Shown: positions 39,125-54,819, counted from the first letter of the stretch. The stretch is DNA of 64,000 nt from Candidatus Multivoradales bacterium (GCA_965223155.1 CBDCVR010000014.1:1248001-1312000), one strand, 5' to 3'. Numbers and translations are program-made. Notes: a model not told the origin generated them from the letters alone.

Positions 39125-39139
39125 TGGCACTGCCCTTGC
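39125..39139 (+). promoter_or_regulatory. Sigma54 (-24/-12) promoter
   Basis: TGGCACTGCCCTTGC = GG-N10-GC, matching TGGCAC-N5-TTGC, 50 bp upstream of ATG 39190. Confidence 0.75.
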
Positions 39140-39189
39140 CCTTCCTCCACATAGAGCGCTAGAGCGACAGCTCCAGAGATTTCCGGCCG

Positions 39190-41361
39190 ATGCACTCCAC
39201 CGCAACAGACCGTCAGCCCCGAATTCTCGTCGTAGATGACGAGATCATGATGCGCATGGTTGCGCTCGAGTCGTTGGGCCAGGCCGGCTTTGAGGTAGTC
39301 GGAGCCGAAAGCGGCCTCGAGGCGGTCAACAAGCTCAACGAGATCGAGCCGGATCTGGTCCTGCTCGACGTCAACATGCCCCACATGGACGGCTTCGCCA
39401 CTTGCCGGGCACTCAAGGCGTCGGCGCCGGGAAGCCAGATTCCGGTGATCATGGTCACCGCTCTCGACGATGTCGACTCGGTGCGCAAGTCGTACGAGGT
39501 CGGCGCGACCGATTTCGTGACCAAGCCGCTCAACTGGCTCATCCTGCGCCATCGCATCGACTACGTGCTGCGAGCCAACCGCGCCGCCGCCGAGCTGCGC
39601 AAGAGCCGGGGCCGGCTGGCCAACGCCCAACGAATCGCCCGCCTCGGTTACTGGGAATGGCAAGTGGAACAGGATCGCCTGAGCTGCTCGGCCGAGATGT
39701 GCCGGATCCTGGGAAGCCGGCCGGCGAATCTCTCCGGCAGCTTCGACGACCTCATGAGCCGCGTCCATCCCGAAGACCAAACCGGGCTCGCCGAGTACTT
39801 TCGAGAGATCCTCGGCTTCGGCGACCCGGGCGGTATCGAGTACCGCATCGTGGGCTCGGACGGCAAGCAGCGCCACGTCGAGCAGCAGTCCGAGGTGGCC
39901 GCGCGCAAGGGCGGACGGGTCGAGACCGTCTCGGCCACGGTCCGGGACATCAGCGAGCGCAAAGACGCCGAGGCGACGATTCGCTTCCTGCGCTACAACG
40001 AGGCCACCACCGGCCTCCCCAACCGGCGCTCGTTCGTCGAACGACTCGACGCGGTGCTCGAGGGCCGGGAGAAGGCCGGCGACCAGTGGGCCGTTCTGGT
40101 CCTTGGCCTGGACCGCTTCGATCGGCTGAGTGACACGCTCGGCCCGGGAGCCGGCGACGAGCTCCTGCGCCACGTCGCCTACCGGCTCCGCAACCATCTA
40201 CGCTCGGGCATGTCGAACTGGGGCGAGAGCCGCGCCGCGGATATCATCTCCCACTTCGGCTCGGACGAGTTCGCCATCTTGCTGGCGGACATTCGCGAAG
40301 CGCAGGACGTCTCCATCGTGGCCCGGCGCCTGCTCTCGCTCCTGGATACTCCATTGACGCTGGGCGACCACCAGGTGTTCGTCAAGGCGAGCCTGGGTGT
40401 GGCCGTCTACCCCAACGACGGCGCCACTGGCGAGGACCTGGTCAGCAGAGCCCAGGCAGCCCGGCATCATGCCCAGCCGGGCGCGCCCCACGCGTACCAC
40501 TTCTACGACGAGACCCTGAACGAGTCGGCTCTGGAGCGCCTCAAGCTCGAGAGCAACCTGGCCGCCGCGATCGAGCGCGACGAGTTCGATCTCTTCTACC
40601 AGCCCCAGGTCGACATGACCTCGGGTCAGGTACTGGGTGTCGAGGCCCTGATCCGGTGGAACCATCCGGAGCTGGGGCTTCTGACGCCGTTCCATTTCCT
40701 GGACCTGGCCGAGGAAACCGGCCAGATCGTGCCGATTGGAGAGTGGGTGCTGCGCGAGGCCTGCCGCCAGGCTCGCCTCTGGCGCGACCTCGATCTCTTG
40801 CCCGTGCGCGTGTCGGTCAATCTCTCCAGCCGGCAGCTTCTTCAAGAAGACCTGGCCGACAAGGTTGCCGGAATCCTAGAGGAAACCGACATGCCGCCGC
40901 ACCTACTCAACCTCGAGCTGACGGAAGGCGCGCTCATGCAGGACTTCGACGAGGCGGCCAAGCGCCTGACCGATCTCAAGGGTCTGGGCGTCGGGCTATC
41001 GGTCGATGACTTCGGCAAGGAGTACTCGTCGCTGAGCCGCCTTGCCCAGTTCCCGCTGGACTGTCTCAAGATCGACAAGTCGTTCCTCAGGGGTGTTCCG
41101 GATAGTCGGGACATGTCCGCCATCGTCGGTGCCATCATCGCCATGGGCGAGAGTCTCGGCCTCGAGGTGTTGGCCGAGGGCGTCGAGCTCGAGGACCAGG
41201 TGGATTTCCTGATCGAGCGCGGCTGCACCCGCTGCCAGGGCTTCCTCTTCGCCAAGCCCATGAGCGCCGAGGACGTAGCGCCCCTCCTCGAGGCCTCCGG
41301 CGCCTCCTCATCGCGCCGCGCCGAAAGCTCCGGTCCGGTGCGTCTGGCCGCCGTCCTCTAA
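39190..41361 (+). CDS. REC-PAS-GGDEF-EAL c-di-GMP enzyme
   Basis: ILVVDD/LLDVNMP receiver, VHPED PAS, TGLPNRR, GSDEF, YQPQV..VEALIRW, DDFG, LKID, AEGVE, QGF. Confidence 0.92.
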   Translation: MHSTATDRQPRILVVDDEIMMRMVALESLGQAGFEVVGAESGLEAVNKLNEIEPDLVLLDVNMPHMDGFATCRALKASAPGSQIPVIMVTALDDVDSVRKSYEVGATDFVTKPLNWLILRHRIDYVLRANRAAAELRKSRGRLANAQRIARLGYWEWQVEQDRLSCSAEMCRILGSRPANLSGSFDDLMSRVHPEDQTGLAEYFREILGFGDPGGIEYRIVGSDGKQRHVEQQSEVAARKGGRVETVSATVRDISERKDAEATIRFLRYNEATTGLPNRRSFVERLDAVLEGREKAGDQWAVLVLGLDRFDRLSDTLGPGAGDELLRHVAYRLRNHLRSGMSNWGESRAADIISHFGSDEFAILLADIREAQDVSIVARRLLSLLDTPLTLGDHQVFVKASLGVAVYPNDGATGEDLVSRAQAARHHAQPGAPHAYHFYDETLNESALERLKLESNLAAAIERDEFDLFYQPQVDMTSGQVLGVEALIRWNHPELGLLTPFHFLDLAEETGQIVPIGEWVLREACRQARLWRDLDLLPVRVSVNLSSRQLLQEDLADKVAGILEETDMPPHLLNLELTEGALMQDFDEAAKRLTDLKGLGVGLSVDDFGKEYSSLSRLAQFPLDCLKIDKSFLRGVPDSRDMSAIVGAIIAMGESLGLEVLAEGVELEDQVDFLIERGCTRCQGFLFAKPMSAEDVAPLLEASGASSSRRAESSGPVRLAAVL

Positions 41362-41424
41362 CGACCCGTCGATAGCCCGCGATAGGTGCCGCGGCCGCGC
41401 TCGCGCCGTGCCCGCTTCCTGCCG

Positions 41425-41450
41425 GCTGGCCCGGTCTCCGCCGGGCCAGC
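41425..41450. other. Perfect 10-bp intergenic hairpin
   Basis: gctggcccgg-tctccg-ccgggccagc, between the EAL gene and the response regulator. Confidence 0.45.
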
Positions 41451-41528
41451 GGCCGCGGCTTGCCGTGCCGGTCCGTTTCCGTTTTACACTACGGCCAGCA
41501 ATCCCGGCGGCCGCCCACACCGGACCTT

Positions 41529-42890
41529 ATGCGCGACATCGAAACCCTGGTCATCGACGACGATCCCCAGATCCAACTGGCGGTGGAGCTCGCGTTGGAA
41601 AACGAGAACTTCAACCTGACCGCCGCCGGCAGTGCCGAAGAAGGCCTCGAGCTGGCGAAGCGTCACCGCTACGAGACCGCGGTCCTGGACCTTCACCTAC
41701 CCGGCATGCACGGCTTGGAGCTCCTGGGCCAGCTCAAGGAGATGCCGCAGTCGCCGGAGGTGGTCGTCCTGACCGGCCGGCCCGACTTGGACACTGCTGT
41801 CAAGGCGACCAAGGCAGGCGCATACGACTACCTGTCCAAGCCTTTCGACGCGTTCAAGCTGGCCTCGACCCTCAAGAACGCTGCGGCCAAGTACCGGCTG
41901 AGCCGGGAAAACGCCGTGCTCAAGCACACAGTCGCCAGCCACCGGGCCGACACCGGTGGCCTGGTCGTCGCCGACAGCGAGCCCATGCGGCGCATCCTCG
42001 AAGTGCTGGACCGGGTGGCTCCATCCGACGCCTCGGTGCTGATCCAGGGCGAGACCGGCTGCGGCAAGGGCTTGATGGCCAAGCTCATTCACGCCCGCAG
42101 CACCCGATCCGCTGAGCCTCACCTTCACATCAACTGCAGCGCCCTGTCCGATTCCCTTCTCGAAAGCGAGCTCTTCGGCCACGAGAAGGGCTCGTTTACC
42201 GGCGCCACCAGCGCCAAGCCCGGCCTCTTCGAGGTCGCCGACGGCGGCACTCTGTTCCTGGACGAGATCGCCGAGACCAGCGCCGCCATGCAGGCAAAGC
42301 TCCTTCAAGTTCTGGACAGCGGTGAGCTCCGCCGCGTAGGCGGGACGTCATTCATCCAGGTGGACGTTCGCATCGTCTCGGCCACCAACAAGGACTTGGA
42401 GCGCGAGATCGCCGAAGGACGATTCCGGCGGGATCTCTTCTTTCGTCTCAATGTGGTCAACCTCCAGTTGCCGCCATTGCGCGAGCGTCGAGACGACATT
42501 CCGGGGCTCGTCAGCCTCTACCTCGAGCGCCACCGACTCCCGGGACAGAAGGTCAAATCGGTGGCCCCCGGGGCAATGGAACGCCTCCGCACCCACGCCT
42601 GGCCGGGCAACGTGCGCGAGCTCGCCAACGTGGTCGAAGGACTGGTGCTGATGACTCCCGGCGAAACCATCGGCAGTCAGCATCTGCCGGCGACACTGAG
42701 CGACGGGCCGCACAGGGAAGCCGAAACGAGCGACCCCCGGGAGCCCCGCAGCCTGGCCGAAGTCCAGAAGGAGCACCTTATCCGGACTCTGCGCTACACG
42801 GACGGCAAGAAGGCCCCCGCGGCGAGGCTTCTCGGAATCGACGTCAAGACCCTGTACAACAAGATCAAGGCGTACGAAATCGAAGTCTGA
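41529..42890 (+). CDS. Sigma54-dependent response regulator (NtrC family)
   Basis: Receiver (IDDD, LDLHLP), [36 protein letters not shown] and a Fis-type HTH. Confidence 0.93.
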
Positions 42891-42901
42891 GTCCCGGCGA
42901 G

Positions 42902-45900
42902 CTAACTGACCGCGGCCTCGTCGTCGATGTCGGTGGCCAGGGCGTGGAGGACTCTCTCGTGCTCGCGGACCAACTCGACGAGAAGGTCGGCGACGTTCGG
43001 TGCCGTACCGGCGCCGTCTTCGATCTCGGTACAGATCTCGGCCAGGCGGCTGGCGCCGATCATGGCGCTCGAGGATCGGAACTTGTGCGCCAGGTAGGTC
43101 AACTGCTCGTGGTCACCGGCCGAGGCCGCCGATCCCATCAATTCGACCTGCTCGCCCGACGTCGTCCGGTAAAGGCGCAGGATCCGCAGCGCGCCTTCCT
43201 TGGACAGCGGATCCCAGAGGTAGCGCTTCTGCTCCTCGAGATTGATCGGCGAGTCCGCATCCGGGGAGACCCCTGCCTCGGCCCCGGAGGGCACGAGCTT
43301 GAGGCCCGAGAACCGGTTCTCCGGGCTCACCTTGGCAGGCATCGGCTGCACCTCCTTGCGAACCGCCGGCAGCCAGCGACGCAGAACGGCGAAGAGCTGA
43401 TCCTGGCTGAAGGGCTTGCTTAGGTAGTCGTCCATACCGGCGGCAAGACACTTCTCGCGCTCGCCCGCCAGCGCGTGGGCGGTCATCGCGACGATCGGGA
43501 CCCGGAGCGTCTCGGGCCTCGAGCGAATCTCGTTGGTGGCCGTGTACCCGTCCATGTGTGGCATCTGGCAGTCCATCAGAATGAGGTCGAAGCTCTGGGC
43601 GTCTAACGCTCTCAAGGCTTCGATGCCATTGCTCGCGACTTCCACGGTGCCACCCAGGCCTTCGAGCATTCCGCAGACTACGTCCTGGTTGATCTCATTG
43701 TCCTCGACCAAGAGCACCCGCCGCTCGTGGAGATTGGGCGGCGACGCCGCGGCAACCCGGGCCAGGGCCTCGTCGGTGCGCATCCGGGAAGTGCTGGCCT
43801 GGCGCTCGAGGCGCACCTCGAACCAGAAGGTTGAACCCTCGTTCCAAGTACTATCGACGCCGATCTCGCCGCCCATCATCTCGACGAACGCCCTGGAGAT
43901 CGCCAAGCCCAAGCCGGTACCGCCGAACCGGCGCGTGGTCGAGCCGTCGGCTTGCTGGAAGGTGTCGAAGATCACCTCGCTTTCCTCGGAGCTGATGCCG
44001 ATGCCGGTATCGCGCACCTCGAAGCGGAGCTTGACGTCGGCCTCGGTTGATTCCACCGGTTCGACTTCGAGCGAGACGAATCCTGAATCGGTGAACTTGA
44101 CTGCGTTACCGACCAGGTTGATCAAGATCTGGCGCAGCCGGGTAGGGTCTCCGACGAGCTTCCTCGGGCAGCGCTGGAGCGCGGAGGAGCGCAAGACGAG
44201 CCCCTTGCGCCCGGCCTGCTCGTCAAAGAGGCCTAGCACCTCGTCCAGGACTCCCTGGAGGTCGAAGGCCACCTCCTCCAACTCCAACTTGCCGGCCTCG
44301 ATCTTGGAGAAGTCCAGGATCTCGTTCAGGATCCCGAGCAGGTTGCCGGCCGAATCCCGCGCCTTCTCCGCGCAGGCCGCCTGGCCGGCGGACAGGTCGC
44401 TATTCATCAGGAGCTCGAGCATGCCCAGCACTCCGTTCATCGGCGTGCGAATCTCGTGGCTCATATTGGCCAGGAACTGGGACTTGGCTCGCGAGGCGCT
44501 CTCGGCGTGCTCTTTTTCTTTTTGGAGGCGAATCATGTCGGTGACGTCGGTGCCCGAGCTGAGGGTTCCGGCCGCCCTGCCGTCGTCGCCGCTCAGATAC
44601 GTCGTTTGCCAGGAAATGACCCGCTCGTCTCCGCCCCGCGTACGCACTCGGTACTCGGAGGAACGCGGCGCTTTGGCACCCACCAGGCTCCGTCGCACGA
44701 CCTCCGGCTCACAGACGAAGGACTCGAACCAGTTGCGGCCGATGAGATCCGCCTCCTCATAGCCAAGGAGCTGGCAGCCCTTGCGGTTGACGAGAACGAT
44801 CTGCCCGTCCACGTCCAGCACCAACATGATGACCTCGGCCACCTGAAAGTAGTTCTGCGCCTTGGTCTTCTCACGAAAGAGCGCTTGCTCCTTGGCGACG
44901 CGGCGCTGGATCTCATCCTCCAGGGCGGTATTGGCCGCCGCCAGCTCGCGGGTTCGCTGCCGCTTTCGAAGCTGACCGCGCAGGTAGTACGCGGCCCCCA
45001 GCAGCACCGCGATCGAATAGCCGACAAACGCCCACCAGGTAGCCCATGGCGGTGCCAGCGCTCGCAATTTGAGGGTCAGTCCTTCCCGGTTCCAGACCCC
45101 GTCGTTGTTGGAGGCCTGGACGCGAAACGTGTACTCGCCCGAGTCTAGATTGGTGTAGGTCGCCCGGCGCCGATTGCCCAGGTCAACCCAGTCCTTGTCG
45201 AAGCCTTCCAACTTGTAGCGGTACCGGTTGCGCTCGGGCGCGGTGTAGTCGAGGGCCGCGAAATCGAACGTCACCATCGAGTCGGTATGTTCCAGAACCA
45301 GCTCCTCGAGCTGGGTCACCGGACGATCGAAGATCGCCTCCTCGTTGAGCTTCAGAACCCGGGTCAGAAACACCGGCGGTGCGTGCGGATTGGTTCGAAT
45401 CTGGTTGGGATCGAAGACGTTGAATCCGTTGAGCCCGCCAAAGAACATGGTGCCGTCGCGAGCGCGCAACGCGGCGGCGAAGTTGAACTCCTCGCTCTGC
45501 AGGCCGTGGCTGGTGTTGTAGTTGCGAAACGTGCCGGTGGCGGGATCCAGAACCGCAAGGCCTCGATTGGTACTGAACCAGAGTTGGCCGTCGTCATCCA
45601 GCAGCGACCCATAGACCGTGTGGCTGGAGAGCCCGTCCCGAGGAAGGTACCGGGAGAAGACCGTCCGGCGCGCGCGGCGATCGCTCGCCGCCCACCGGTT
45701 GAGCCCACCCCCCTGGGTGCCGATCCAGAGGTCGCCCACGGCGTCCTCGACGATGGTCCAGGCATGCTGCGAGCTCAGGCTGAAAGGATCCTCGGGATCG
45801 TAGGTGAAGTGATCGAAAGTCCCCCGGTCCCGGTCCATGCGGTTCAAGCCGCCGCCGTCGGTGCCGATCCAGAGCATGCCGTTAGCGTCCTCGTAGATCG

Positions 45901-47470
45901 CGACCACCCGATCGCTGGACAGGCTGGCCCCGTCCTCGCCGTCATGGCGATAGGCCGAGAACGACTCACCGTCGGCACTCAATTGATTGAGACCGCCGCG
46001 ATAGGTGCCGACCCAAATCTGGCCGTGAGAGTCCTCGAAAATCGCGGTCACGCCATCGAAGCTGAGGCTCGTGGGGTCAGACGGATCGTGGCGAAAGTTC
46101 CGGAAGTGGCCGGTGGCGAGATCGAGCATGTCCAGACCGGAGGCGACCGTGCCAATCCAGACCCGGTCCTGCGTGTCGACGTAAACGGAAGCGACGCGGT
46201 TATCGCTCGGCCCCCCCCTCACGTTGGACGGATCGTGCCGATAGCGGCGAAAGCGGCCCGTCCCGCGATCGAACACGTTCAGGCCGTCGACGGTGCCGAT
46301 CCAGATCCGGCCGGCCGAATCCTCACTGAACGAAGTCACGTAGTTATGGCTTAGCCGGGCCGGATCATCGGGCTTGGCGGTGAAATGGGGAAACGTCCCA
46401 CTCAACGGGTTCCACTTGTTGAGCCCGTCGTCGGTACCCACCCAAACGACGCCGCCCCGATCCTGGAACAGGGACTTGATGCGATCGTGGCCGAGGCTGT
46501 AGGGATCCGCTGGATCGTGGCGATAGACCCGGAAGTCCCTGCTCGCCGGATCCCAGGCTCCAAGTCCGGTGTCCGTGCCGACCAGGAGCAGGCCGGCGCT
46601 GTCTTGAAAGATTGCGTTGACGGCCCCAGGGGGCAGGTTCGATCCGGCCGAATCGAAGCGCTCGAAGGTCCCGGTCGCGCGATCGAACCGGTTCAGCCCC
46701 TTGTCGGCCGTACCGATCCAGAGATCGCCGTTGCCGTCTTCGAAGAGCTGTACCAGCCGGTCGCTCGACAAACTCGCCGGATCGGCTGGATCGTGCCGGT
46801 ACTGCGTGAACAGGCGGGCACCCACGTTCAGGACGTTGAGGCCGCCGCCGTCGGTCGCGACCCAGACGCGCCCGGCGCCATCCTGATGGAGATCGCGAAC
46901 ATGCCCGTGGCTCAAGCCGGATGCGTCATCGGCTATCGCAGGAAAACGGTCGGCCTGACCCGTCTCCCGATCGAAACGGTTGAGCCCACCGCCATCGGTG
47001 CCGATCCAGAAGTCTCCAGCCCGATCCTGGAGGATGACCCGAATGCGGTTGCTGCTGAGGCTTTGCGGATCGTCGGCGTCGTGCCGAAAATGCCGGAAAC
47101 TGCCGTCGACCGGATTCAAGCGGTCGAGGCCGCCGGTGTCAGTGCCGATCCAGAGAAAACCGTCTTCGTCCTCCACGATGGCTCGAACACTATTGTGGGA
47201 CAGGGTCGCCGGATCGGCCGGATCGTGGCGGAAGAGCTTGAACTCATAGCCGTCGAAACGATTGAGGCCCTCCTGGGTGCCGAACCAGAGGAAGCCGTCC
47301 CGGTCCTGGGCGATGACGTTGACTGCCGCTTGCGACAAGCCCTCTTCGAGCGAGACTCTCTGAAACCGCGTCTTGGTCTCGCGCGTGTTGCCAGACACAG
47401 GCAAGGCGGCCATCACCAGGATGGCCGCCAAACCCTTGAAAACGCGAAACTGAAACGACCGAAACATCAC
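42902..47470 (-). CDS. Hybrid sensor histidine kinase: periplasmic beta-propellers, Y_Y_Y, TM, PAS, HisKA, HATPase, REC, HPt
   Basis: Repeated D..G.(L/I)W(I/V)GT..GL blades, YRYKLEGFD, PPW.TWW, FLANMSHEIRTPMNG, NLVGNAVKFT, GGTGLGL, LMDCQMP, AHKFRSSS. Confidence 0.93.
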   Translation of the reverse strand: MMFRSFQFRVFKGLAAILVMAALPVSGNTRETKTRFQRVSLEEGLSQAAVNVIAQDRDGFLWFGTQEGLNRFDGYEFKLFRHDPADPATLSHNSVRAIVEDEDGFLWIGTDTGGLDRLNPVDGSFRHFRHDADDPQSLSSNRIRVILQDRAGDFWIGTDGGGLNRFDRETGQADRFPAIADDASGLSHGHVRDLHQDGAGRVWVATDGGGLNVLNVGARLFTQYRHDPADPASLSSDRLVQLFEDGNGDLWIGTADKGLNRFDRATGTFERFDSAGSNLPPGAVNAIFQDSAGLLLVGTDTGLGAWDPASRDFRVYRHDPADPYSLGHDRIKSLFQDRGGVVWVGTDDGLNKWNPLSGTFPHFTAKPDDPARLSHNYVTSFSEDSAGRIWIGTVDGLNVFDRGTGRFRRYRHDPSNVRGGPSDNRVASVYVDTQDRVWIGTVASGLDMLDLATGHFRNFRHDPSDPTSLSFDGVTAIFEDSHGQIWVGTYRGGLNQLSADGESFSAYRHDGEDGASLSSDRVVAIYEDANGMLWIGTDGGGLNRMDRDRGTFDHFTYDPEDPFSLSSQHAWTIVEDAVGDLWIGTQGGGLNRWAASDRRARRTVFSRYLPRDGLSSHTVYGSLLDDDGQLWFSTNRGLAVLDPATGTFRNYNTSHGLQSEEFNFAAALRARDGTMFFGGLNGFNVFDPNQIRTNPHAPPVFLTRVLKLNEEAIFDRPVTQLEELVLEHTDSMVTFDFAALDYTAPERNRYRYKLEGFDKDWVDLGNRRRATYTNLDSGEYTFRVQASNNDGVWNREGLTLKLRALAPPWATWWAFVGYSIAVLLGAAYYLRGQLRKRQRTRELAAANTALEDEIQRRVAKEQALFREKTKAQNYFQVAEVIMLVLDVDGQIVLVNRKGCQLLGYEEADLIGRNWFESFVCEPEVVRRSLVGAKAPRSSEYRVRTRGGDERVISWQTTYLSGDDGRAAGTLSSGTDVTDMIRLQKEKEHAESASRAKSQFLANMSHEIRTPMNGVLGMLELLMNSDLSAGQAACAEKARDSAGNLLGILNEILDFSKIEAGKLELEEVAFDLQGVLDEVLGLFDEQAGRKGLVLRSSALQRCPRKLVGDPTRLRQILINLVGNAVKFTDSGFVSLEVEPVESTEADVKLRFEVRDTGIGISSEESEVIFDTFQQADGSTTRRFGGTGLGLAISRAFVEMMGGEIGVDSTWNEGSTFWFEVRLERQASTSRMRTDEALARVAAASPPNLHERRVLLVEDNEINQDVVCGMLEGLGGTVEVASNGIEALRALDAQSFDLILMDCQMPHMDGYTATNEIRSRPETLRVPIVAMTAHALAGEREKCLAAGMDDYLSKPFSQDQLFAVLRRWLPAVRKEVQPMPAKVSPENRFSGLKLVPSGAEAGVSPDADSPINLEEQKRYLWDPLSKEGALRILRLYRTTSGEQVELMGSAASAGDHEQLTYLAHKFRSSSAMIGASRLAEICTEIEDGAGTAPNVADLLVELVREHERVLHALATDIDDEAAVS

Positions 47471-47492
47471 CGAAACATACTAGTGGCTCAAC

Positions 47493-49172
47493 TCAGTCGT
47501 CGTTGAGGAACATGTCACTAGCAGACTGGATGTAGAGCGGGTCGCCATTGGGAACCGCATCCGACCAGAGGAAGCCGTCGCTCCACAGGAAGCCGTCACT
47601 CCACAGGAAGCCGTCGCTCCACAGGAAGCCGTCACTCCACAGGAAACCGTCGCTCCACAGAAAGCCATCGCTCCACAGGAAGCCGTCGCTCCAGAGGAAG
47701 CCCGCGGCCCACTGGTCGCCGTCCCAGAGCTCCGCCGTGTCCTCGATGAGGATCGCGTTGTCGCCCTCGACTCGCCTCAGCCGTGGCGACCAGGCGCGGG
47801 AGGCCGAGTCACTCGAATCGAAAAGCGCGGCCTGAATATTCAAGACGCCAGCTCCCGCCGCAACCGGACTCCAGTCGACCTTGCGCGCCGTTCGCATGAG
47901 CCGAGCCTTGATCGTGTCCGGATCCAACGAAGGGTCGTCCGCGATCATCATCGCAACCGCACCCGAGACTACGGCCGCCGCCATGCTGGTGCCACTGAGT
48001 TCGAAGTACTGACCGCTGCAATTCGAGCTGCCGCAGCTTCGAAGCCGCTCCGGCATCTCTTCGACCATGCGAGACTGGTAGGAGATCGGCGCAATGAACC
48101 GGTTTCCAGGGGCCAAGAGATCGGGCTTCAGGAAATGATCGAATGCGGTTGGTCCCTGGGACGAATAGGTCGAAACATAGTCGTCCCAGAAATAGTTGGT
48201 GCCGTTATCGGTCACCGATCCGACCGTGATGACGCTACGTGAATTGCCAGGGCTGGTGACGGTGAACCGGCCATCGCGGCCGTAATTGCCCGCCGAGCAC
48301 ACCACCACCATTCCTTGATCCCAAACCTTCTCGACCGCCTCGACCAAAGGATCGCGTCTGGCTTCGGCTTGGACTCCCATACCTATCGACATGTTGACGA
48401 CCCGGACATCAAAGGACGAACCACGATCCAGGAGCCAGTCGAGAGCCGCCAGCACGTCCGAAGTCACGCCCCGTCCGTGGGAATCGAGCGCCCGAAGCGA
48501 GAGCACTCGGGCGTACGGTGCGATGCCACGGTACTGTCCCTTCGAATCGTATCCGTCTCCACCGATGATCCCGGCAACATGGGTACCGTGACCGTAGGGA
48601 TCGTAAAGTCCGGTACCCGAGCTGTTGTCCGAGCACTCATCATCGTCGCAACGACCGCCGACGAAGTCGAACTGAATCGGACTAGGCCAGATGTCAACGT
48701 GAGAGCCCACGCCGGAATCGATGACAGCAACGGTAGGCGTGCCTGCCGTATTGTTGAAGTTCGGCGCAGTAGTCGCATGCGGATGACGCGCGGTTTGCCG
48801 AGCCGACACCGAGCTTGCCTCGACGGTTTCGTCCACGGCAACGTACTCGATCCTCGGATGGTCCACGAGAGACCGGAGGCGAGCCTCGGGAACGCGAACC
48901 GCGCGCATCGAGAAGTTCTTGTACTTGCGCAGAATCTCGACGCCGCTCGCCTCGAGCTCCTGGTCGTCAGCCAGCCCCGGGGGCGTGGTGAACTTCAAGA
49001 TCACGTCGACTTTGGTCTCCCGACCAGGCGCCTCGGCCTGGCCCCGCGCTTCGGCGGCGGGACTGACGAGCAGCGCGGCCGCCATGGCCAGCAACAGCGT
49101 TGCCGTCGCTACCGAGGGTGCCGGTACCAGGTTCCAAAGAACATCATGCAGAAAGGAAGGTCGCGACATCAT
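47493..49172 (-). CDS. Secreted S8 subtilisin-like peptidase with C-terminal (GFLWSD)8
   Basis: AGGAG RBS; signal peptide and propeptide; catalytic triad VIDSG / HGTHVAG / GTSMAA; SAGN. Confidence 0.9.
   Translation of the reverse strand: MMSRPSFLHDVLWNLVPAPSVATATLLLAMAAALLVSPAAEARGQAEAPGRETKVDVILKFTTPPGLADDQELEASGVEILRKYKNFSMRAVRVPEARLRSLVDHPRIEYVAVDETVEASSVSARQTARHPHATTAPNFNNTAGTPTVAVIDSGVGSHVDIWPSPIQFDFVGGRCDDDECSDNSSGTGLYDPYGHGTHVAGIIGGDGYDSKGQYRGIAPYARVLSLRALDSHGRGVTSDVLAALDWLLDRGSSFDVRVVNMSIGMGVQAEARRDPLVEAVEKVWDQGMVVVCSAGNYGRDGRFTVTSPGNSRSVITVGSVTDNGTNYFWDDYVSTYSSQGPTAFDHFLKPDLLAPGNRFIAPISYQSRMVEEMPERLRSCGSSNCSGQYFELSGTSMAAAVVSGAVAMMIADDPSLDPDTIKARLMRTARKVDWSPVAAGAGVLNIQAALFDSSDSASRAWSPRLRRVEGDNAILIEDTAELWDGDQWAAGFLWSDGFLWSDGFLWSDGFLWSDGFLWSDGFLWSDGFLWSDGFLWSDAVPNGDPLYIQSASDMFLNDD
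47559..47702 (-). repeat. 18-bp coding tandem repeat x8 (GFLWSD)
   Basis: Eight contiguous units that differ only at synonymous positions. Confidence 0.95.
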
Positions 49173-49174
49173 TC

Positions 49175-51001
49175 TTACTCCTGATCGACCCATTTGTTGG
49201 TTCGCACCGCGTCGGTCGCGGCGAAGGTATCGGTCCAAAGAAAGCCGTCGGTCCACAAGAAACCGTCGGTCCAGAGAAAGCCATCGGTCCAGAGAAAGCC
49301 GTCGGTCCACAAAAAACCGTCGGTCCAGAGAAAGCCATCGGCAAACGCCGCGGCATCGGTCCAAAGAAAGCCGTCGGTCGACGGCGAGGTGTCCGTCCAG
49401 AGGAACCCGTCCAGGCCTTCCAAGTAGTACGTCCCGTCCTCGGTCACCCGAGCCCGGCCGACGTAGTGCTCGACCCCGGCCAGATCCCGGTCAATGTCCA
49501 GGCCCTGGTTGGCGCAGAGACAGTCGTCCTTGGCCTTGAAGCGCTGCTCGACCGCCTCGTAGGCGTCAATGAGTCCCGCGCCTTGCTGAAAGACGCTGGC
49601 CGCGAGCTCACCCGTCTCGGTCAGCGCAGGACGCGCGGTCGCCATCAGGCGAAACTTGACTTCATCGGGAGTCAGAGAAGGGTGCTCTTCCAAAACGAGC
49701 GCCACGACACCGCTGACCACGGCGGCAGATTGGGAGGTGCCGGACATCATGAAGTAGAGGCCACCGTTGTGGAACTCGGGATGCTCGTTCGCCAACGTCG
49801 AGAACACGCTCATCAGTGAAACGATGTGACCTCCGGGCGCCAAGACGTCGGGTTTGACAAAGCCCTCGGCCGTCGGTCCGGCGGCCGAGAAGTAGGTCAG
49901 CCGATCGTCGGTCCGGTCCGCGGGGGTGAAGTTGTCGGTCATGGCCCCCACCGTGATGACGTAGGGCACGTTGCCCGGTACGCCGATCGTCATGGCGTCC
50001 GGGCCCCCATTCCCCGCTGAAGCCACCACCACGATGCCCGCACGCCAGGCCTCCATGACGGCCTGGTTGAGCGGATCGTCCCAGTAGTGGGAGCGCGCGG
50101 GGGCGCTGAAGGACAGATTCAGGACCCGAATGCCGTAGGCGTCGCGATTGCGCACGATCCAGTCGATGCCCCGGATGACGTCGGCATAGCTGCCCAGGCC
50201 CTCAGCATCGAAGGCCTTCACCACGACCAGATCGGCGTCTGGCGCGATGCCGTTGTAGCCACGTCCATCGTCGCTTATCCGGCTGTTGACTGCGACCGAC
50301 GCGACGTGTCCGCCATGACCGAACTGGTCGGTTCCGAAAACCGAGGTACCGTGATCGGTGTCGCTGATCGCGTCGTAGTGTCCTAGAAGCCGAGTCTGCC
50401 CGTCCGAGTCCAGGTAGACGCCCGAATGGGAGGCGAACCCTGAATCCAGAACTGCGATCGTCACCCCGCGCCCTGTTGCCGCGCGCTCATGCACCCGATC
50501 CGCCTCGACTCGCTCCGGAAACTCCACGTAGGGATCGAGGTGCGATTCGAAGAGGGCTCTCCATGCGCTGTAGGAGCTGGTCCCCTCTTCCCCACCTGTA
50601 GACGTTGTGGTCGTCTCTTCGCTGGATTCCCCGGCCGTTGCCGATTCAATGTCCTCTGAAGTGCTACTACTTGCCTCACCTGAGGTCCGAGAGCTCCTCG
50701 TCTTCTTGGCGCTCGAGACCGTCGAGTCCTCGTAAACCCGGATGCCGGAACGGGTCTCGAGGTGATCGCGTTGGGCGGCGGTCAGATGGGCGCCGACCGC
50801 CCGGATCACGGTCAGCCGGTGGGTGACCGAGCCCCCCACGGCTTCCACCGCCTCGGCGGCCAGGTCGACGTTCTTCGCCTGGACGATGTAGGACTTCTTG
50901 GCCGAGGCATCTTCGGCCTCGGCTCGCATCGCCAGAGCAGGCACCAGCAGGAGGGCGCCGATCCAGGCGAGGACGAGAGATTGCACACGAGTTCGATTCA
51001 C
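49175..51001 (-). CDS. Secreted S8 subtilisin-like peptidase with eight C-terminal GFLWTD units
   Basis: Signal peptide and propeptide; catalytic triad VLDSG / HGGHVAS / GTSQSA; SAGN. The GTG start at 51001 is chosen because the longer ORF would span the sigma54 motif. Confidence 0.9.
   Translation of the reverse strand: MNRTRVQSLVLAWIGALLLVPALAMRAEAEDASAKKSYIVQAKNVDLAAEAVEAVGGSVTHRLTVIRAVGAHLTAAQRDHLETRSGIRVYEDSTVSSAKKTRSSRTSGEASSSTSEDIESATAGESSEETTTTSTGGEEGTSSYSAWRALFESHLDPYVEFPERVEADRVHERAATGRGVTIAVLDSGFASHSGVYLDSDGQTRLLGHYDAISDTDHGTSVFGTDQFGHGGHVASVAVNSRISDDGRGYNGIAPDADLVVVKAFDAEGLGSYADVIRGIDWIVRNRDAYGIRVLNLSFSAPARSHYWDDPLNQAVMEAWRAGIVVVASAGNGGPDAMTIGVPGNVPYVITVGAMTDNFTPADRTDDRLTYFSAAGPTAEGFVKPDVLAPGGHIVSLMSVFSTLANEHPEFHNGGLYFMMSGTSQSAAVVSGVVALVLEEHPSLTPDEVKFRLMATARPALTETGELAASVFQQGAGLIDAYEAVEQRFKAKDDCLCANQGLDIDRDLAGVEHYVGRARVTEDGTYYLEGLDGFLWTDTSPSTDGFLWTDAAAFADGFLWTDGFLWTDGFLWTDGFLWTDGFLWTDGFLWTDTFAATDAVRTNKWVDQE
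49229..49408 (-). repeat. 18-bp-register coding repeat: 8 x GFLWTD with two in-register hexamer spacers
   Basis: GFLWTD-TSPSTD-GFLWTD-AAAFAD-(GFLWTD)6; synonymous codon variation between units. Confidence 0.95.
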
Positions 51002-51080
51002 GAATTGAATTCCTTGAGTTCTCTTGAGGACTTGTTCGATGGTTTGCTGGGCGTTTCTCCGCCGGACGCAGCCTGCTAGG

Positions 51081-51095
51081 GCAAGGGGCATGCCG
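51081..51095 (-). promoter_or_regulatory. Sigma54 (-24/-12) promoter for the subtilase-kinase operon
   Basis: Reverse complement CGGCATGCCCCTTGC = GG-N10-GC, about 80 bp upstream of the peptidase start. Confidence 0.65.
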
Positions 51096-51490
51096 TTGGC
51101 GTATTCGCATAACGCGATGTATCCCCAGAGTGGATTCACACCCGGTATCCCTTGCCATCAAGGGACTTTCTTCGGAGCACTTCGAGCAGAAACAATCGGA
51201 GCCAGATCTTGGCCGGCGGTCTTCCGGGGAGTTTTTCCCGAGCTTCCGCGGGTGGCAAGGAAATCCTCCCGGGAGCTATGGCGAGCCGGCCCCGGTCGCC
51301 GGCTCGCCACCGGCTCGGACCGTCGAGATGAATCCCCGTGGCGTGGGCGACGGCGCCGCCAAGTCCGAGAACCTCTCGCCACCCTACCCTTGAACTTCTC
51401 GCGGGCCCACCCGTTCGGGTATGGTCACCCAACGCCGTGAGCGGTTAGATGACACGGAGGGCGGCGCCGTCGCTCGAGAGGAGGTTGCGA

Positions 51491-52081
51491 ATGTCCAGTG
51501 ATCGGGAATCATCCAGGCGGAGTTTCGTCTCGCGCCTGTCCTCGGTGGCCCTCGTCGGCGGCTTGGCCAGCGCCTACGGCACGCTTGCCGCGTTCATGGG
51601 GCGCTTCGTCTATCCGGCAAGGCCCCGCCAGAGGAGCTGGATGTTTCTCTTCGACGTCGATCGGCTGGCGCTGGGCGATGCCATCGACTACCGCGCTCCG
51701 GACGGCGCCGCGGTGACCGTCGCCCGTCAGAGCGAAGGACGCGGGGAAGAGGCGTTCGTCGCGCTTTCCGGAACCTGTCCACACCTTGGCTGCCGCGTGC
51801 ACTGGGAGCCCCAGAACGATCGCTTCTTCTGTCCCTGCCACAATGGGACGTTCGACTCGGACGGCACGGCAACCGGCGGACCGCCCTTAGAGGCCGGGCA
51901 ATCCTTGCCTCGATACCCCCTCAAGGTGGAGCGTGGTCTCGTCTACATCGAGGTTCCGACCGAGTCGCTGTCCGGCCAGCAGGCCCGTAGCGCCGGCCGC
52001 ATGATCGAGCTCCGGAAGATCTCGGCCCGGCCCGGATTCGATCCCTGCCTCGCAGCCGGTAGAAGCTGCAGGAGCGCCTAG
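51491..52081 (+). CDS. Rieske [2Fe-2S] subunit of a Rieske/cytochrome b complex
   Basis: Tat motif SRRSFV plus TM; CPHLGC and CPCHNGTF. Confidence 0.92.
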   Translation: MSSDRESSRRSFVSRLSSVALVGGLASAYGTLAAFMGRFVYPARPRQRSWMFLFDVDRLALGDAIDYRAPDGAAVTVARQSEGRGEEAFVALSGTCPHLGCRVHWEPQNDRFFCPCHNGTFDSDGTATGGPPLEAGQSLPRYPLKVERGLVYIEVPTESLSGQQARSAGRMIELRKISARPGFDPCLAAGRSCRSA

Positions 52082-52084
52082 CCC

Positions 52085-53134
52085 TTGAACGCCCTCCAGG
52101 CATGGCTCCAGGACCGTCTGCCGATCCAGGCGGACGATCTGCGCGAACTCACCAACGAGCCGGTTCCGAATCACCTGAAGCGCTGGTGGTTCGCGCTAGG
52201 AGGAACGCCCGCCTATCTCTTCGTCGTCCAGATCGTGACCGGCATCTTGCTGGCGATCTACTACCAGCCGGCGCCGGCAACCGCCTACGAGTCGGTCCGC
52301 TACATCACCGAAGAAGCGGCTTTCGGCTGGTACTTGCGGGGCCTCCACAAGTGGGCGGCCACCTTCATGATCGCCGCGGTCATCCTGCACCAGATGCGGG
52401 TCTACTTCACCGGCGCCTATCGCAAGCCGCGCGAGATCAACTGGATGGTCGGCATGTGCCTCCTGATCTCGACCCTGATGCTTGGTTTTACCGGCTATAG
52501 CCTGGTTTACGAGCAGCTCAGCTACTGGGGCGCGACCGTGGGCGCCAACATCAGCGCCAGCGTGCCGGTGTTCGGCGAGTTGATGCGCAACCTGCTCCTC
52601 GGCGGCGAGGCCTACAACAGCAGGACCCTGTCGCGCTTCTTCATCCTGCACGCGGCCGTCCTACCCACGACGCTCGTCCTGCTCCTGGTCGTCCACATCG
52701 CCATCATTCGCATGCAGGGAGTCACCGAGTACCGGTTCAAGGACGACACCGAGGACAAGCCCAAGCACTTCAGTTTCTTTCCGGATCACCTCCTGACCGA
52801 GATCCTGATCGGGTTGGTTCTCATGATCTTGCTGACTGCCCTGGCGACGATCTATCCGCCGGAGATGGGGCCCAAGGCCGATCCGCTGGTCACCCCCGAA
52901 GTCATCAAGCCGGAGTGGTTCTTCTACGTCGCCTTTCGCTGGTTGAAGCTCTTCTCGGGCACGGCCGCCGTCCTGAGCACCGGCTTCGTCGTTTTCATCA
53001 TGTTCGTCTGGCCGTTCATCGACGCCGCCATCCGCAAACGCACGCGCTTTCAAGAAGCCAGCATCTGGATCGGCATCGTCGGAGTCCTGGCCATCGTCGG
53101 CCTTACCGTCTGGGAAGCCCTGGTCGCCCACTGA
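52085..53134 (+). CDS. Cytochrome b of a Rieske/cytb complex (b6 + subunit IV-like, fused)
   Basis: LGG, HKWAA..LHQMRV, REINW, FTGYSL..SYWGATVG, LH..VH, KPEWFF. Confidence 0.92.
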   Translation: MNALQAWLQDRLPIQADDLRELTNEPVPNHLKRWWFALGGTPAYLFVVQIVTGILLAIYYQPAPATAYESVRYITEEAAFGWYLRGLHKWAATFMIAAVILHQMRVYFTGAYRKPREINWMVGMCLLISTLMLGFTGYSLVYEQLSYWGATVGANISASVPVFGELMRNLLLGGEAYNSRTLSRFFILHAAVLPTTLVLLLVVHIAIIRMQGVTEYRFKDDTEDKPKHFSFFPDHLLTEILIGLVLMILLTALATIYPPEMGPKADPLVTPEVIKPEWFFYVAFRWLKLFSGTAAVLSTGFVVFIMFVWPFIDAAIRKRTRFQEASIWIGIVGVLAIVGLTVWEALVAH

Positions 53135-53166
53135 GCTCCGCTGGAGCCCTCTGAGCGGGAGTACGT

Positions 53167-54819
53167 ATGACCCTTGAAACCAAACGCATCGTCATCGCCA
53201 TCCTTGCTTTCGTCTTTCTGGCTTCGCTGCTCTTGGTCCAGCGCATGGAGATCGTGCGCCGCCAAGCTGAAGCCGGTCTCAGCAAGGCCCACATCTCGGT
53301 GCCCGCAAACTCGAAGGACTGTGTTGACTGCCACGCCGAGGGCAATCCCGGCATCGTGGACCACTGGCGCGGCTCGACCCACGCCGAGAAGGGCGTGGGC
53401 TGCGTCGAGTGCCACCAGGCCGACGAGCGCGACCCCGACAGCTACCAGCACTACGGCGCGCTCATCGCCACCGTGGTGACGCCGCGCGACTGTTCGCGCT
53501 GCCATCTCGAGGAGTCCCGGGAGTTTGCTTCCAGTCACCATGCCAAGGGCGGCAACATCCTGGCCTCGCTGGACAACTTCCTGGCCGAGACGGTCGAGGG
53601 GTCCAGGGTTCCCTTCAATCCCCACTCTCCGACCCCGGGCAAGGCCGTAGACGAGGTCAACGGATTCGCCAGCGCCTTCTCCGGCTGCCAGCAGTGCCAT
53701 GGGTCCAAGGTGGCCCTTCAGGGCACCGACGGCGAGCGCGTGACGGTGGACGAGCTGGCGCCGGACGAGAACGGATTCCCCACCAGCTCGGAAGCGGTCT
53801 CGCGCATCGTGCGCGACGAGAACGGCGTGCCCGAGTTTCACCCGGGGACCTGGCCCAACACGGGCATCGGCCGCCTCAATCTGGACGGCTCCCTGGGCTC
53901 GTGCACGGCTTGCCATAGCCGCCACGATTTCTCGCCGCGGCGCGCCCGCCAGCCCGAGAACTGCGGCAAGTGCCACTTGGGCCCCGATCATCCTCAAAAG
54001 GAGATCTTCGAGGAATCCAAGCACGGCGCCGCCTACCGCGACCTCAAAGATCAGATGAATCTGGACGCGACCGATTGGGTCTTGGGTGCCGACTACTCGG
54101 CGGCGCCGACCTGCGCCACCTGCCACATGTCCGGCAACCTCAGAAACGGCGGCGACGTCACCCACGATCCCGGCGAGCGCATCTCCTGGACCAACCGGCC
54201 GCCGGTCAGCCTGGTCATGGACACCGACGTCGAGCACAAGATCGTCAAGGAGACCGATCCAGCCAAGCGAGAGGCCCTCATTCACGATTCGGCCGCCGAC
54301 AAGCGCGGGCGCATGGCCCAGGTCTGCTCGCACTGCCACACCCCCGACTACGTCAACGCCTTCTACACCCAGTACGACGATCTCGTCATCTTGTACAACG
54401 AGAAGTTCGCCAAGCCGGGGCAGGCGATCATGGGCGCGCTCAAGGACAGCGGGCTACGCACGCCGACCCAGTTCGACGAAGAGATCGAGTGGACCTGGTT
54501 CTATCTCTGGCACCACGAGGGCCGCCGGGCGCGCATGGGCGCTTCGATGATGGCGCCCGACTACACCCACTGGCACGGCATGTACGAGGTGGCCGAGCGC
54601 TTCTACATGGAGCTCATCCCGCAGGCGCGCGAGCTCGCCGAGCACGGCGCCGCCAAAGGCAAGCGCTCCCAGGCGCGGGCGGTCGAAACCCTCATCGACG
54701 GCATCCTGGCGCGGCCCGAGCACGCCTGGTTCGAACAGGGAGCCGAGGGCGAGGCCACCAAGATCCGCGAGGAAATGCAGCGCCGCTACGGCCAGTCGGG
54801 CGGCGACGAAACGAGGTAG
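53167..54819 (+). CDS. Octaheme cytochrome c, hydroxylamine oxidoreductase family
   Basis: Eight CxxCH (CVDCH, CVECH, CSRCH, CQQCH, CTACH, CGKCH, CATCH, CSHCH); CHSRHDFS, GPDHPQ, ESKHG, GASMMAPDYTHWHG; N-terminal TM. Confidence 0.9.
   Translation: MTLETKRIVIAILAFVFLASLLLVQRMEIVRRQAEAGLSKAHISVPANSKDCVDCHAEGNPGIVDHWRGSTHAEKGVGCVECHQADERDPDSYQHYGALIATVVTPRDCSRCHLEESREFASSHHAKGGNILASLDNFLAETVEGSRVPFNPHSPTPGKAVDEVNGFASAFSGCQQCHGSKVALQGTDGERVTVDELAPDENGFPTSSEAVSRIVRDENGVPEFHPGTWPNTGIGRLNLDGSLGSCTACHSRHDFSPRRARQPENCGKCHLGPDHPQKEIFEESKHGAAYRDLKDQMNLDATDWVLGADYSAAPTCATCHMSGNLRNGGDVTHDPGERISWTNRPPVSLVMDTDVEHKIVKETDPAKREALIHDSAADKRGRMAQVCSHCHTPDYVNAFYTQYDDLVILYNEKFAKPGQAIMGALKDSGLRTPTQFDEEIEWTWFYLWHHEGRRARMGASMMAPDYTHWHGMYEVAERFYMELIPQARELAEHGAAKGKRSQARAVETLIDGILARPEHAWFEQGAEGEATKIREEMQRRYGQSGGDETR

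Follow-up and report, generated by a model that had tools for sequence, protein, structure and literature searches.

Tryptophan-hexapeptide arrays on secreted subtilases paired with double-propeller sensors: a candidate protease-borne signal in environmental bacteria

The locus analyzed here raises the question of why two neighboring genes for secreted proteases should both end in an array of identical Trp-containing hexapeptides and be followed by the gene of a large periplasmic sensor kinase, and whether the arrays could be what this kinase senses. It lies within a window of 64,000 nt from Candidatus Multivoradales bacterium (GCA_965223155.1 CBDCVR010000014.1:1248001-1312000), the whole stretch of DNA that was analyzed, and comprises a minus arm with two S8 subtilase genes, S8-1 and S8-2, and a hybrid kinase gene, and a plus arm with a REC-PAS-GGDEF-EAL gene and an NtrC-type gene (Table 1). 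The two arms are convergent with 11 nt between them; given a start of S8-2 at its ATG 49172, the protease genes are separated by 2 nt, and 22 nt lie between the end of S8-2 and the start of the kinase gene at 47470. ORF coordinates and Pfam domains bear out the genes, domains, repeats and gaps that a preliminary description had assigned to two convergent arms, and its eight GFLWTD and eight GFLWSD C-terminal units are likewise recovered in the translations. The genome that contains the window also encodes rpoN and has, in 4.0 Mb, only four Y_Y_Y genes.

Table 1. Features of the two arms, with positions counted from the first nucleotide of the window
Feature	Position	Strand	Remarks
sigma54 -24/-12 promoter-like site TGGCACTGCCCTTGCC	39125..39140	+	1 mismatch; ends 49 nt before the ATG of the GGDEF-EAL gene
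REC-PAS-GGDEF-EAL protein	39190..41361	+	Pfam domains, motif check
NtrC-type sigma54 activator	41460..42890	+	REC, AAA+, HTH_8; real start probably ATG 41529
Hybrid histidine kinase	42902..47470	-	1522 aa; Pfam domains
S8-2, type-B tailed subtilase	47493..49172	-	start ATG 49172, alternative ATG 49193
S8-2 array	47559..47702	-	8 contiguous GFLWSD units; 18-bp array by TRF
S8-1, type-A tailed subtilase	49175..51001	-	608 aa counted from GTG 51001
S8-1 array	49229..49408	-	8 exact GFLWTD units; TRF 18- and 54-bp tandem repeat
Weak sigma54-like site CGGCATGCCCCTTGCC	51080..51095	-	3 mismatches; 78 nt upstream of S8-1 start

The likely start of S8-1 is the GTG at 51001, which is followed by a signal peptide and lies in an open frame that extends to 51139. 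The protein continues with a putative I9-like propeptide and a linker rich in Ser, Thr and Glu, which lead to the S8 core; behind the core lie an N-cap, the Trp-hexad array and a C-cap reading ..RTNKWVDQE. For residues 36-96 AF2 predicts a beta-alpha-beta unit with a pLDDT of ~97, and Pfam gives no I9 match there. S8-2, which is ~35% identical as type B proteases are to those of type A, carries a signal peptide and an S8 core and has the C-terminus ..MFLNDD. Both window proteases are matched by PF00082 (Peptidase_S8; E 3e-50 and 1e-49), and the Asp-His-Ser triad in subtilase order (D186, H229 and S423 in S8-1) is invariant across 22 sequences and retained in 109/110 aligned family ORFs. Judged by their sequences, the two proteins are S8 subtilases that are secreted and predicted to be active, their catalytic triad being intact. 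Of the solved structures, that of the subtilisin-like protease Tk-SP from Thermococcus kodakarensis (PDB 3afg, 9ues; E ~5e-51 over residues 167-485) comes closest to the catalytic core; the match does not reach the tail, and N-cap, array and C-cap have no counterpart in any solved chain.

The tails of both enzymes belong to a family in which a conserved N-cap is followed by about nine hexapeptides (xxxWxx) and a conserved C-cap. At least five Trp residues at an exact spacing of six were present in 103 of the 116 family S8 ORFs, and throughout these arrays (103/103) the Trp is invariant, while the other five positions vary among lineages and give rise to 62 distinct consensus units, some of them containing Pro. 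The number of units per array ranges from 3 to 18, and some lineages show variable spacing with periods of 7 and 10-13. In the window the nucleotide differences among the 16 units are all synonymous by the codon table (the Ser of the S8-2 unit, for example, is encoded by AGC, AGT and TCG), and because the repeats also form 18-bp TRF arrays, they are neither chance occurrences nor debris of slippage. In addition, S8-1 contains three in-frame decayed hexads, TSPSTD and AAAFAD inside the array and TFAATD after it at 49228-49211. Across the family, 24 arrays have zero amino-acid differences despite differing DNA units, and the variant codons over all arrays (distinct codons, edge units included) were 558 synonymous versus 520 non-synonymous, where by our rough estimate a ratio of about 1 to 3 would be expected if no selection operated. 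An orthologous cassette of the same genus, whose proteases are 65-71% and whose sensor is 60% identical to those of the window, has kept GFLWTD in its type A and GFLWSD in its type B protease, and the same genome also has a second sensor (52% identical) that is paired with an S8 protease of a different unit. By these measures the units are lineage-specific and under selection at the level of the peptide, which is what a cognate signal would need.

The kinase encoded behind the proteases begins with a membrane anchor and a periplasmic double Reg_prop propeller with a Y_Y_Y domain (residues ~28-806; 215 bits for Reg_prop and 78 bits for Y_Y_Y), followed by a second membrane span and by cytoplasmic PAS, HisKA, HATPase_c, REC and Hpt domains in this order. 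Over its full length the sensor part matches BT4663 (PDB 4a2l, E 5e-184), and the window protein resembles this HTCS (PDB 4a2l/4a2m; relatives 3v9f, 3ott and 3va6) not only in its periplasmic propeller and Y_Y_Y domain, but also in the combination of kinase and receiver in one protein and in the secreted-hydrolase genes that adjoin it. Hybrid two-component systems of Bacteroides control glycan-degrading enzymes, and those of the BT4663 type have a glycan-fragment ligand, a fused AraC-type DNA-binding output and SusC/D-type neighbors. In contrast, the output in the window family is Hpt, GGDEF or unrecognized, the neighbors are proteases and no transporter is conserved. HTH_AraC is absent from the window kinase by Pfam, its C-terminus being Hpt, and among seven sensors scanned the output was a hybrid kinase with Hpt in three, GGDEF in two and of no recognized type in two. 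Since the same sensor domain bears different outputs, it is through the input that protease and sensor are linked. Among solved relatives of this domain, all those known to have a ligand bind glycans, not peptides, and no ligands are known for propeller/Y_Y_Y sensors outside Bacteroides. Blades 1-2 of the window kinase read DGFLW[FI]GT and resemble the hexapeptide unit; mimicry of this blade motif by the unit was considered and rejected, as the motif is unchanged in lineages with quite different units and does not covary with them.

When genes were clustered into families over 81 loci (80 fetched loci and the window), three families were shared by many loci, namely S8 (72), the propeller sensor (36) and REC-PAS-GGDEF-EAL (24), and the next largest had 4. 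No transporter, glycosidase, SusC/D-like or binding-protein gene and no prenyltransferase-like or other modifying gene was conserved beside the pair among these 81 loci, and the context of the window locus, with no SusC/D-like or glycosidase family conserved there, is unlike that of a polysaccharide-utilization locus. In 24 of the 53 loci with at least 3 kb of downstream sequence, the S8 gene is followed on its own strand, at a distance of at most 1 kb and often of 0-60 bp, by a sensor gene. Of the 33 loci that extend 4 kb or more on each side, 22 contain a sensor at any position, the remaining 11/33 having a tailed S8 gene but no sensor. The proposed neighborhood conservation of repeat-tailed S8 proteins with Y_Y_Y/propeller sensors is therefore strong (22/33 and 24/53). 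Their proposed linkage to regulators holds for the REC-PAS-GGDEF-EAL gene, which is found in 13 of the same 33 loci, but fails for the NtrC-type activator, which is near in only 2/33 and confined to close relatives. An auto-amplifying loop, which had been envisaged as part of the circuit, is accordingly limited to this clade, if it exists at all.

The pairing spans Acidobacteriota, Gammaproteobacteria and other lineages, with up to nine tailed proteases beside one sensor. One orthologous sensor from the same genus has no S8 gene upstream, and paralogous sensors of ~1130 aa are preceded by sigma54-activator-like (NtrC-type AAA+) and GGDEF-EAL genes and by no S8 gene. The tail profile matches 457 clusters at 50% identity; the tail family is absent from the Pfam and NCBIfam profile libraries, Pfam giving no hit on the tails at any E value up to 10, and our literature searches found no published description of tailed S8 proteases. 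The pair of S8 protease and propeller sensor is thus a widespread, uncatalogued cassette that is, as far as we found, undescribed in print. Moreover, the distance between units follows that between sensors better than that between the proteases' own cores (partial Mantel test controlling for the cores, r 0.57, p 0.0002, n 23; r 0.40, p 0.035 in a subset of 13), and the mean Hamming distance of units was 0.91 in 22 within-genome pairs versus 2.52 in 779 between-genome pairs (permutation p 0.003), both tests being subject to confounding by phylogeny and by paralogy, with only ~7 genomes in the type-B sample. The retention of units, their similarity within genomes and the Mantel result are also to be expected wherever linked genes are simply inherited together and share an ancestry. 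The anticipated covariation of unit and sensor was seen for whole-sensor distance and not for the blade motif.

Sigma54 promoters were scored against TGGCAC-N5-TTGCW with its GG-N10-GC core. The preliminary description had placed a -24/-12 motif on each arm; this applies well to the plus arm, where the site has a single mismatch, and only weakly to the minus arm, where the site with three mismatches keeps GG-N10-GC and TTGC and is not above chance alone, since it is equalled in 555 of 5000 random 210-nt stretches of the loci (~11%). Sites with at most two mismatches were not enriched over the window as a whole (16 found versus a mean of 18 in shuffles). Near the repeat-tailed S8 homologues such motifs do recur, as sites with at most one mismatch were found upstream of 16/103 family S8 genes versus 25/5000 random stretches, and exact sites are present upstream of S8 genes in family members elsewhere. 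The NtrC-type protein of the plus arm combines Response_reg, Sigma54_activat (223 bits) and HTH_8 domains with the loop GSFTGA, as enhancer-binding proteins do; it falls below every NCBIfam equivalog cut-off and is therefore given no specific name. In the REC-PAS-GGDEF-EAL protein the GGDEF site is degenerate (GSDEF) and the EAL site is intact, which suggests that its output is probably c-di-GMP breakdown and that the protein is probably a phosphorylation-controlled c-di-GMP phosphodiesterase. Among 20 relatives listed with both motifs, most have GGDEF and EAL, the motifs alone being inspected.

As an answer to the question posed by the locus, we propose that the tail array is the cognate input of the sensor, most likely freed in the form of hexapeptides, with c-di-GMP turnover as the output and feedback through sigma54, a reading that we consider a real possibility although short of probable. 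A probably sigma54-driven operon would give rise to two secreted subtilases and a membrane sensor, and the subtilase activity of the same or the neighboring enzyme would cut the array into units, in a register plausibly set by cleavage C-terminal to the invariant Trp. Each protease molecule that is exported would in this way supply about eight copies of one lineage-specific hexapeptide, and these would be bound in the periplasm by the propeller domain. From the hybrid kinase, phosphate would next move via its Hpt domain to two receivers, that of the REC-PAS-GSDEF-EAL protein, where it would alter c-di-GMP breakdown, and that of the NtrC-type activator, which would act on sigma54 promoters and might thereby provide feedback. 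The cell would thus gauge the active exoprotease, its own and that of its kin, and adjust lifestyle and protease output. Extended beyond the window, and here we are more doubtful, the same logic would imply that in many environmental bacteria, among them diderms and probably also monoderms, secreted subtilases carry their own pheromone as a multi-copy, lineage-specific candidate Trp-hexapeptide array, which would be detached by protease activity and read by a dedicated double-propeller sensor, and that orthogonal channels, several per genome, tie exoprotease output to c-di-GMP. The conserved N-cap and C-cap are equally expected of a capped repeat fold and count against the proposal. In line with the proposal, AF2 gave the array no fold in two runs (pLDDT ~30 with 22 alignment rows and <50 with 74 rows), the S8 core and the N-cap being confident in the same predictions. 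A left-handed beta-helix (Hexapep) or another folded repeat was rejected, as there was no profile match and no strands were predicted in the array; a novel fold may still exist, to which the silence of AF2 is no bar and for which the conserved caps leave room.

A different and, in our judgment, rather unlikely arrangement would be that of an HTCS in which the propeller senses something external, for example a glycan or a peptide set free from detritus or prey, and controls both the protease operon and c-di-GMP, while the Trp array serves the protease itself and may mediate attachment to particles, polysaccharide or the cell surface, aid export or restrain activity until export. The full-length relationship of the sensor domain to BT4663 is in line with such an arrangement, and since S8 genes have sigma54 promoters and, in this clade, a neighboring activator that might receive phosphate from the kinase, these genes could be mere regulatory targets. 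At locus L042, however, the S8 gene ends 16 bp before a gene for a sensor with GGDEF output, and the S8 gene there is therefore not simply a transcriptional target. The existence of family sensors without S8 neighbors and of tailed S8 proteases without a sensor fits an outside cue, although a conserved transporter, glycosidase or binding-protein gene is missing beside the pair in the clustered loci. Likewise, an array capped at either end by conserved sequence is in keeping with a module integral to the enzyme, and the tail occurs solely on S8 cores (77/77 matches with a length of 350 aa or more, out of the best 150 to the tail profile), but a generic sticky tail would require neither identical units nor a Thr/Ser difference between paralogues that is kept across species.

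We regard it as improbable that the enzyme retains its array and is docked by it multivalently on the propellers, so that the sensor would report export or occupancy, or would hold the protease at the inner membrane. Trp-containing disordered motifs bind a periplasmic propeller in the case of colicin and TolB, and the tight operon coupling of S8 and sensor genes, a repetitive module that is predicted to be unfolded between conserved caps, and the variable periods of some lineages, which suit linear motifs on a flexible chain, would all agree with such tethering; yet the exact back-to-back spacing of six in most arrays would be needless for it, and simultaneous docking would be hard where up to nine tailed proteases share one sensor. 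Neutral expansion of low-complexity sequence by replication slippage, with co-regulation as the sole meaning of the adjacency to the sensor, is a highly improbable origin of the arrays, since the tandem 18-bp DNA repeats and the variable copy number that such expansion would leave are accompanied by a synonymous-only pattern in the window that already contradicts it, by the peptide-perfect arrays, codon counts and invariant Trp of the family, and by the retention of the unit between diverged orthologues.

Peptide signaling via two-component sensors is textbook knowledge in Gram-positives and almost unknown in diderms. A multi-copy peptide precursor that is processed by an S8-family protease is found in the yeast alpha-factor and Kex2, and in borosins and plant BURP cyclases repeated cores share a polypeptide with the enzyme that acts on them. 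These systems rely on spacers with defined cleavage sites or on chemical modification, and no coupling to a two-component sensor is known for any of them; unlike the window cassette, they are eukaryotic or natural-product pathways. Here the units stand back to back, without a spacer that bears an obvious processing site, which counts against the proposal. Rap-Phr systems with tandemly duplicated propeptides contain several pheromone copies per secreted precursor, which are excised by extracellular proteases, and have a separate small precursor gene and a cytoplasmic RRNPPA receptor reached after import, in Bacillota and their phages (PMC11343458). In contrast, the window array is part of the protease, and a periplasmic propeller kinase is its candidate receptor. 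The tail units are similar to ComX of ComQXPA systems in being short, lineage-variable and Trp-containing, with a membrane histidine kinase as the (candidate) reader. One Bacillus ComX is described as the 6-residue peptide GIFWEQ (PMC5385187), and ComX is made from a single-copy precursor with a Trp that is isoprenylated by ComQ (PMC5331326), whereas no prenyltransferase-like gene is conserved beside the S8-sensor pair and the type of receptor differs.

Instead of the dedicated small precursor gene of agr, ComX and Phr quorum sensing, the locus has repeats fused to a protease. A search for stand-alone precursors among shorter proteins gave six matches; three of the four inspected are gene fragments, and in the fourth (P0030) a signal peptide leads directly into repeats that run to the end of the sequence (longest contig 1.7 kb). 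If the proposal that the array is the input of the sensor is true, the cassette would represent a new design, in which a protease bears its own signal in many copies and sets it free and by which cells would measure an active public-good enzyme instead of cell number, and it would constitute a peptide-signaling system outside Bacillota in which precursor and processing enzyme are joined in one protein. The more cautious readings also leave novel findings, as the tail is a strongly selected module that had not been catalogued, the S8-propeller-sensor pair spans phyla, and the cassette names a concrete, synthesizable candidate ligand for propeller/Y_Y_Y sensors outside Bacteroides. Cultured carriers of the tailed proteases include Peristeroidobacter soli JW-3, Alteromonas salexigens ASW11-19 and strains of Colwellia (sp. 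BRX10-3) and Thalassomonas (sp. RHCl1).

The minus arm of the cassette consists of the two tailed subtilases S8-1 (type A) and S8-2 (type B) and a hybrid histidine kinase, with gaps of 2 nt (S8-1/S8-2) and 22 nt (S8-2/kinase), and a plus-strand gene pair, the plus arm, converges on the kinase (see table). This anatomy, proposed in a preliminary description, was borne out by the ORF list and domain scans, and counting of the units confirmed the claimed tails: eight exact copies of GFLWTD in S8-1, accompanied by three decayed hexads in frame, and eight contiguous copies of GFLWSD in S8-2. Judged from its sequence, the first plus-arm protein, REC-PAS-GSDEF-EAL, is probably a phosphodiesterase. 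Residues ~101-160 of S8-1 (window 50530-50700) form a Ser/Thr/Glu-rich low-complexity linker between propeptide and catalytic core, which is missing in most aligned relatives. Among the flanking genes, the choice-of-anchor D protein showed no conservation beside the cassette in other loci upon ORF clustering, and the CxxCH protein is probably multihaem.

Features of the cassette and its surroundings, in window positions
Feature	Position	Strand	Remarks
Choice-of-anchor D / ASH-type Ig-repeat protein, 499 aa	37333-38832	+	signal peptide; just upstream of plus arm
Sigma54 motif, plus arm	39125-39140	+	1 mismatch to consensus; ends 49 nt before start codon
REC-PAS-GGDEF-EAL protein	39190-41361	+	ORF list and domain scan
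REC/AAA+/HTH_8 sigma54 activator	41460-42890	+	ORF list and domain scan
Hybrid histidine kinase, 1522 aa	42902-47470	-	many Reg_prop repeats, then Y_Y_Y, PAS, HisKA, HATPase_c, REC, Hpt (domain scan)
S8-2	47493-49172	-	ORF list and domain scan
S8-1	49175-51001	-	likely start GTG 51001, then signal peptide
Best sigma54 candidate, minus arm	51095-51080	-	3 mismatches; by itself not above chance
Rieske protein, cytochrome b-like membrane protein, 550-aa protein with several CxxCH motifs	51449-54819	+	beyond cassette; domain scan for Rieske only

The cassette carries an uncatalogued tail of Trp hexads, which profile scans of Pfam and NCBIfam found to be covered by no model. When the tail alone was used to query a set of 5.8 billion proteins, 26 hits were obtained, each with an S8 domain and similar repeats, and a scan covering a single genome for each species yielded 80 loci spanning Thermoanaerobaculia and other Acidobacteriota, Woeseiaceae, Steroidobacteraceae, Colwellia, Alteromonas, Pseudoalteromonas, Thalassomonas, Chloroflexota and Acidimicrobiia. 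At least five Trp residues at exact six-residue spacing were present in 103 of the 116 S8 ORFs of these loci, with a median array copy number of 9 and a maximum of 18. Units follow the pattern small / aromatic / aliphatic / Trp / polar / mostly acidic, Trp being the sole invariant position among 62 different consensus units (for example GYTWSK, GMPWVD, ANLWSD, GTSWNE and AKVWDD). Type-A arrays follow a conserved N-cap (CANxGLDIxxDLAGxxHYGGxAxxDxxGxYYI) and precede a conserved C-cap at the protein end (..SINxWVxQE); type-B proteins, like S8-2, have a C-terminal ..LNDD-like end. The type-A tail profile matched 457 clusters (50% identity) among 1.84 billion representatives; of the 150 best hits, all 77 that reach 350 aa or more have an S8 core. 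The catalytic triad was aligned in 109/110 family members. AF2 modelled propeptide and core confidently and the N-cap partly so, whereas in two runs the array received a pLDDT of ~30-45 and showed no secondary structure. Longer periods also occur: Colwellia-like loci have units of 11 residues, other lineages the 7-residue unit GGFIWRD or units of 10 and 12 residues (L058, L078, L047, L072 and P0083). Since Trp is kept in these arrays, the period is not restricted to six residues.

Within the window's taxonomic family the tail module was found in 17 of the 24 genomes searched, and in 4 of 16 genomes of the remaining order. The same-genus genome G002 contains an orthologous cassette (proteases 65-71% and sensor 60% identical) in the kept order activator, kinase, type-B S8 and type-A S8, in which the type-A array contains ten perfect copies of GFLWTD and the type-B array mostly GFLWSD, the synonymous codons again being scrambled. 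A second G002 cassette combines another sensor (52% identical) with an S8 of different unit, and in the sensor-domain tree, whose clades have coherent units, the two G002 cassettes fall into different clades. In another relative, locus L100 (G019:C190:275000-294208) packs nine tailed S8 genes into 19 kb, every one with GF[LVM]WSD units; the sensor and GGDEF-EAL genes that match them are on a different contig (L099).

The protease-sensor cassette is conserved, as the preliminary description had predicted in linking repeat-tailed S8 proteins to Y_Y_Y sensors. Clustering of all ORFs of the 80 loci and the window gave just three recurrent families, S8 (72 loci), propeller sensor (36) and REC-PAS-GGDEF-EAL (24); no other family occurs in more than 4 loci. 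When contig ends were allowed for, 22 of the 33 loci flanked by 4 kb or more on each side contained the sensor, 13 a GGDEF-EAL gene and 2 an NtrC-type gene, and in 24 of the 53 loci having 3 kb or more of downstream sequence the sensor lay on the same strand within 1 kb downstream of S8, the genes often abutting or overlapping. Within its 4.0 Mb, the window's own genome has just 4 Y_Y_Y genes. Over its full length the sensor part is related to BT4663 (PDB 4a2l, E 5e-184), and the cytoplasmic output varied among the seven sensors scanned (hybrid kinase with Hpt in 3, GGDEF in 2, none recognised in 2). The conserved periplasmic part with swapped outputs, together with S8 genes running into sensor-GGDEF genes, speaks for a link at the input.

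Unit distance correlated more strongly with sensor distance (r 0.73) than with the distance of the proteases' own cores (r 0.58), with a partial Mantel r of 0.57 (p 0.0002, n 23), which fell to 0.40 (p 0.035) when one large clade was left out (n 13). Within a genome, type-A and type-B paralogues have nearly the same unit (mean Hamming distance 0.91 within vs 2.52 between genomes, p 0.003). Both results are also expected from linked inheritance and shared ancestry, and are compatible with specificity rather than proof of it. Kinase blades 1-2 (window 47150-47290) read DGFLWFGT and DGFLWIGT, sharing GFLW with the protease units. No covariation was seen between the unit and the sensor's own blade motif, and as this motif is constant across lineages with differing units, we take the likeness as generic.

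Of the -24/-12 motifs claimed for both arms, the plus-arm motif held up, whereas the minus-arm candidate is at chance level alone. Apart from this weak second promoter the observation stands; the earlier interpretation is partly supported, its comparative prediction being borne out and its mechanism still hypothetical. The window's genome contains rpoN, several loci have exact sigma54 consensus sites directly upstream of S8 genes, and sites with at most one mismatch preceded 16/103 S8 genes compared with 25/5000 random stretches.

Our tentatively preferred reading, which may well prove wrong, is that the array serves as the sensor's input, most likely after subtilase activity has cut it into hexapeptides, and that the signal would pass via Hpt to the REC-PAS-GSDEF-EAL protein and also to the sigma54 activator. 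Subtilases favor large hydrophobic residues at P1, and the invariant Trp is therefore a plausible P1. A somewhat less likely explanation is sensing of an outside cue as in the Bacteroides-type hybrid two-component systems, with the tail serving the enzyme itself. BT4663-type sensors have a glycan ligand and share the sensor fold, but differ from the cassette in output and neighbors. Three counter-examples lack the protease. L103 (G004:C19:1-12000), with a same-genus orthologous sensor (60% identical), has no S8 upstream; this region contains two out-of-frame fragments of a REC-PAS-GGDEF-EAL gene, and the locus looks like a decayed or rearranged cassette. In L104 (G003:C1) and L105 (G001:C4), the propeller sensors are paralogues (47% identical, with 1133-aa open frames) and are preceded by sigma54-activator-like (NtrC-type AAA+) and REC-PAS-GGDEF-EAL genes without any S8, and the signalling trio thus exists without proteases too. 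That the array is a tethered docking tail appears improbable. Neutral repeats are scarcely credible, being contradicted by the 16 window units, in which every nucleotide difference is synonymous and Ser is drawn from both codon families; the peptide sequence of each unit is therefore under selection, and the arrays did not arise by recent slippage. Residue-level selection maintains the tail, which varies from lineage to lineage and from cassette to cassette.

Besides the BT4663-type sensors, the systems closest to the cassette include yeast alpha-factor with Kex2 and enzyme-fused precursors with multiple cores. They also include Rap-Phr systems, in which extracellular proteases cut pheromone propeptides that are tandemly duplicated (PMC11343458), and the ComX pheromones, short Trp peptides, one of six residues (PMC5385187), with isoprenylated Trp (PMC5331326). 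As a whole, the cassette has the defining features of none of these known families, and no description of it or the tail family was found in the literature searched. In P0030 (150 aa; longest contig 1.7 kb) a signal peptide is followed directly by GFLW[TS][DG] repeats up to the sequence end, which the ORF reaches. The visible portion contains no S8 core, and P0030 could be a repeat protein in its own right.
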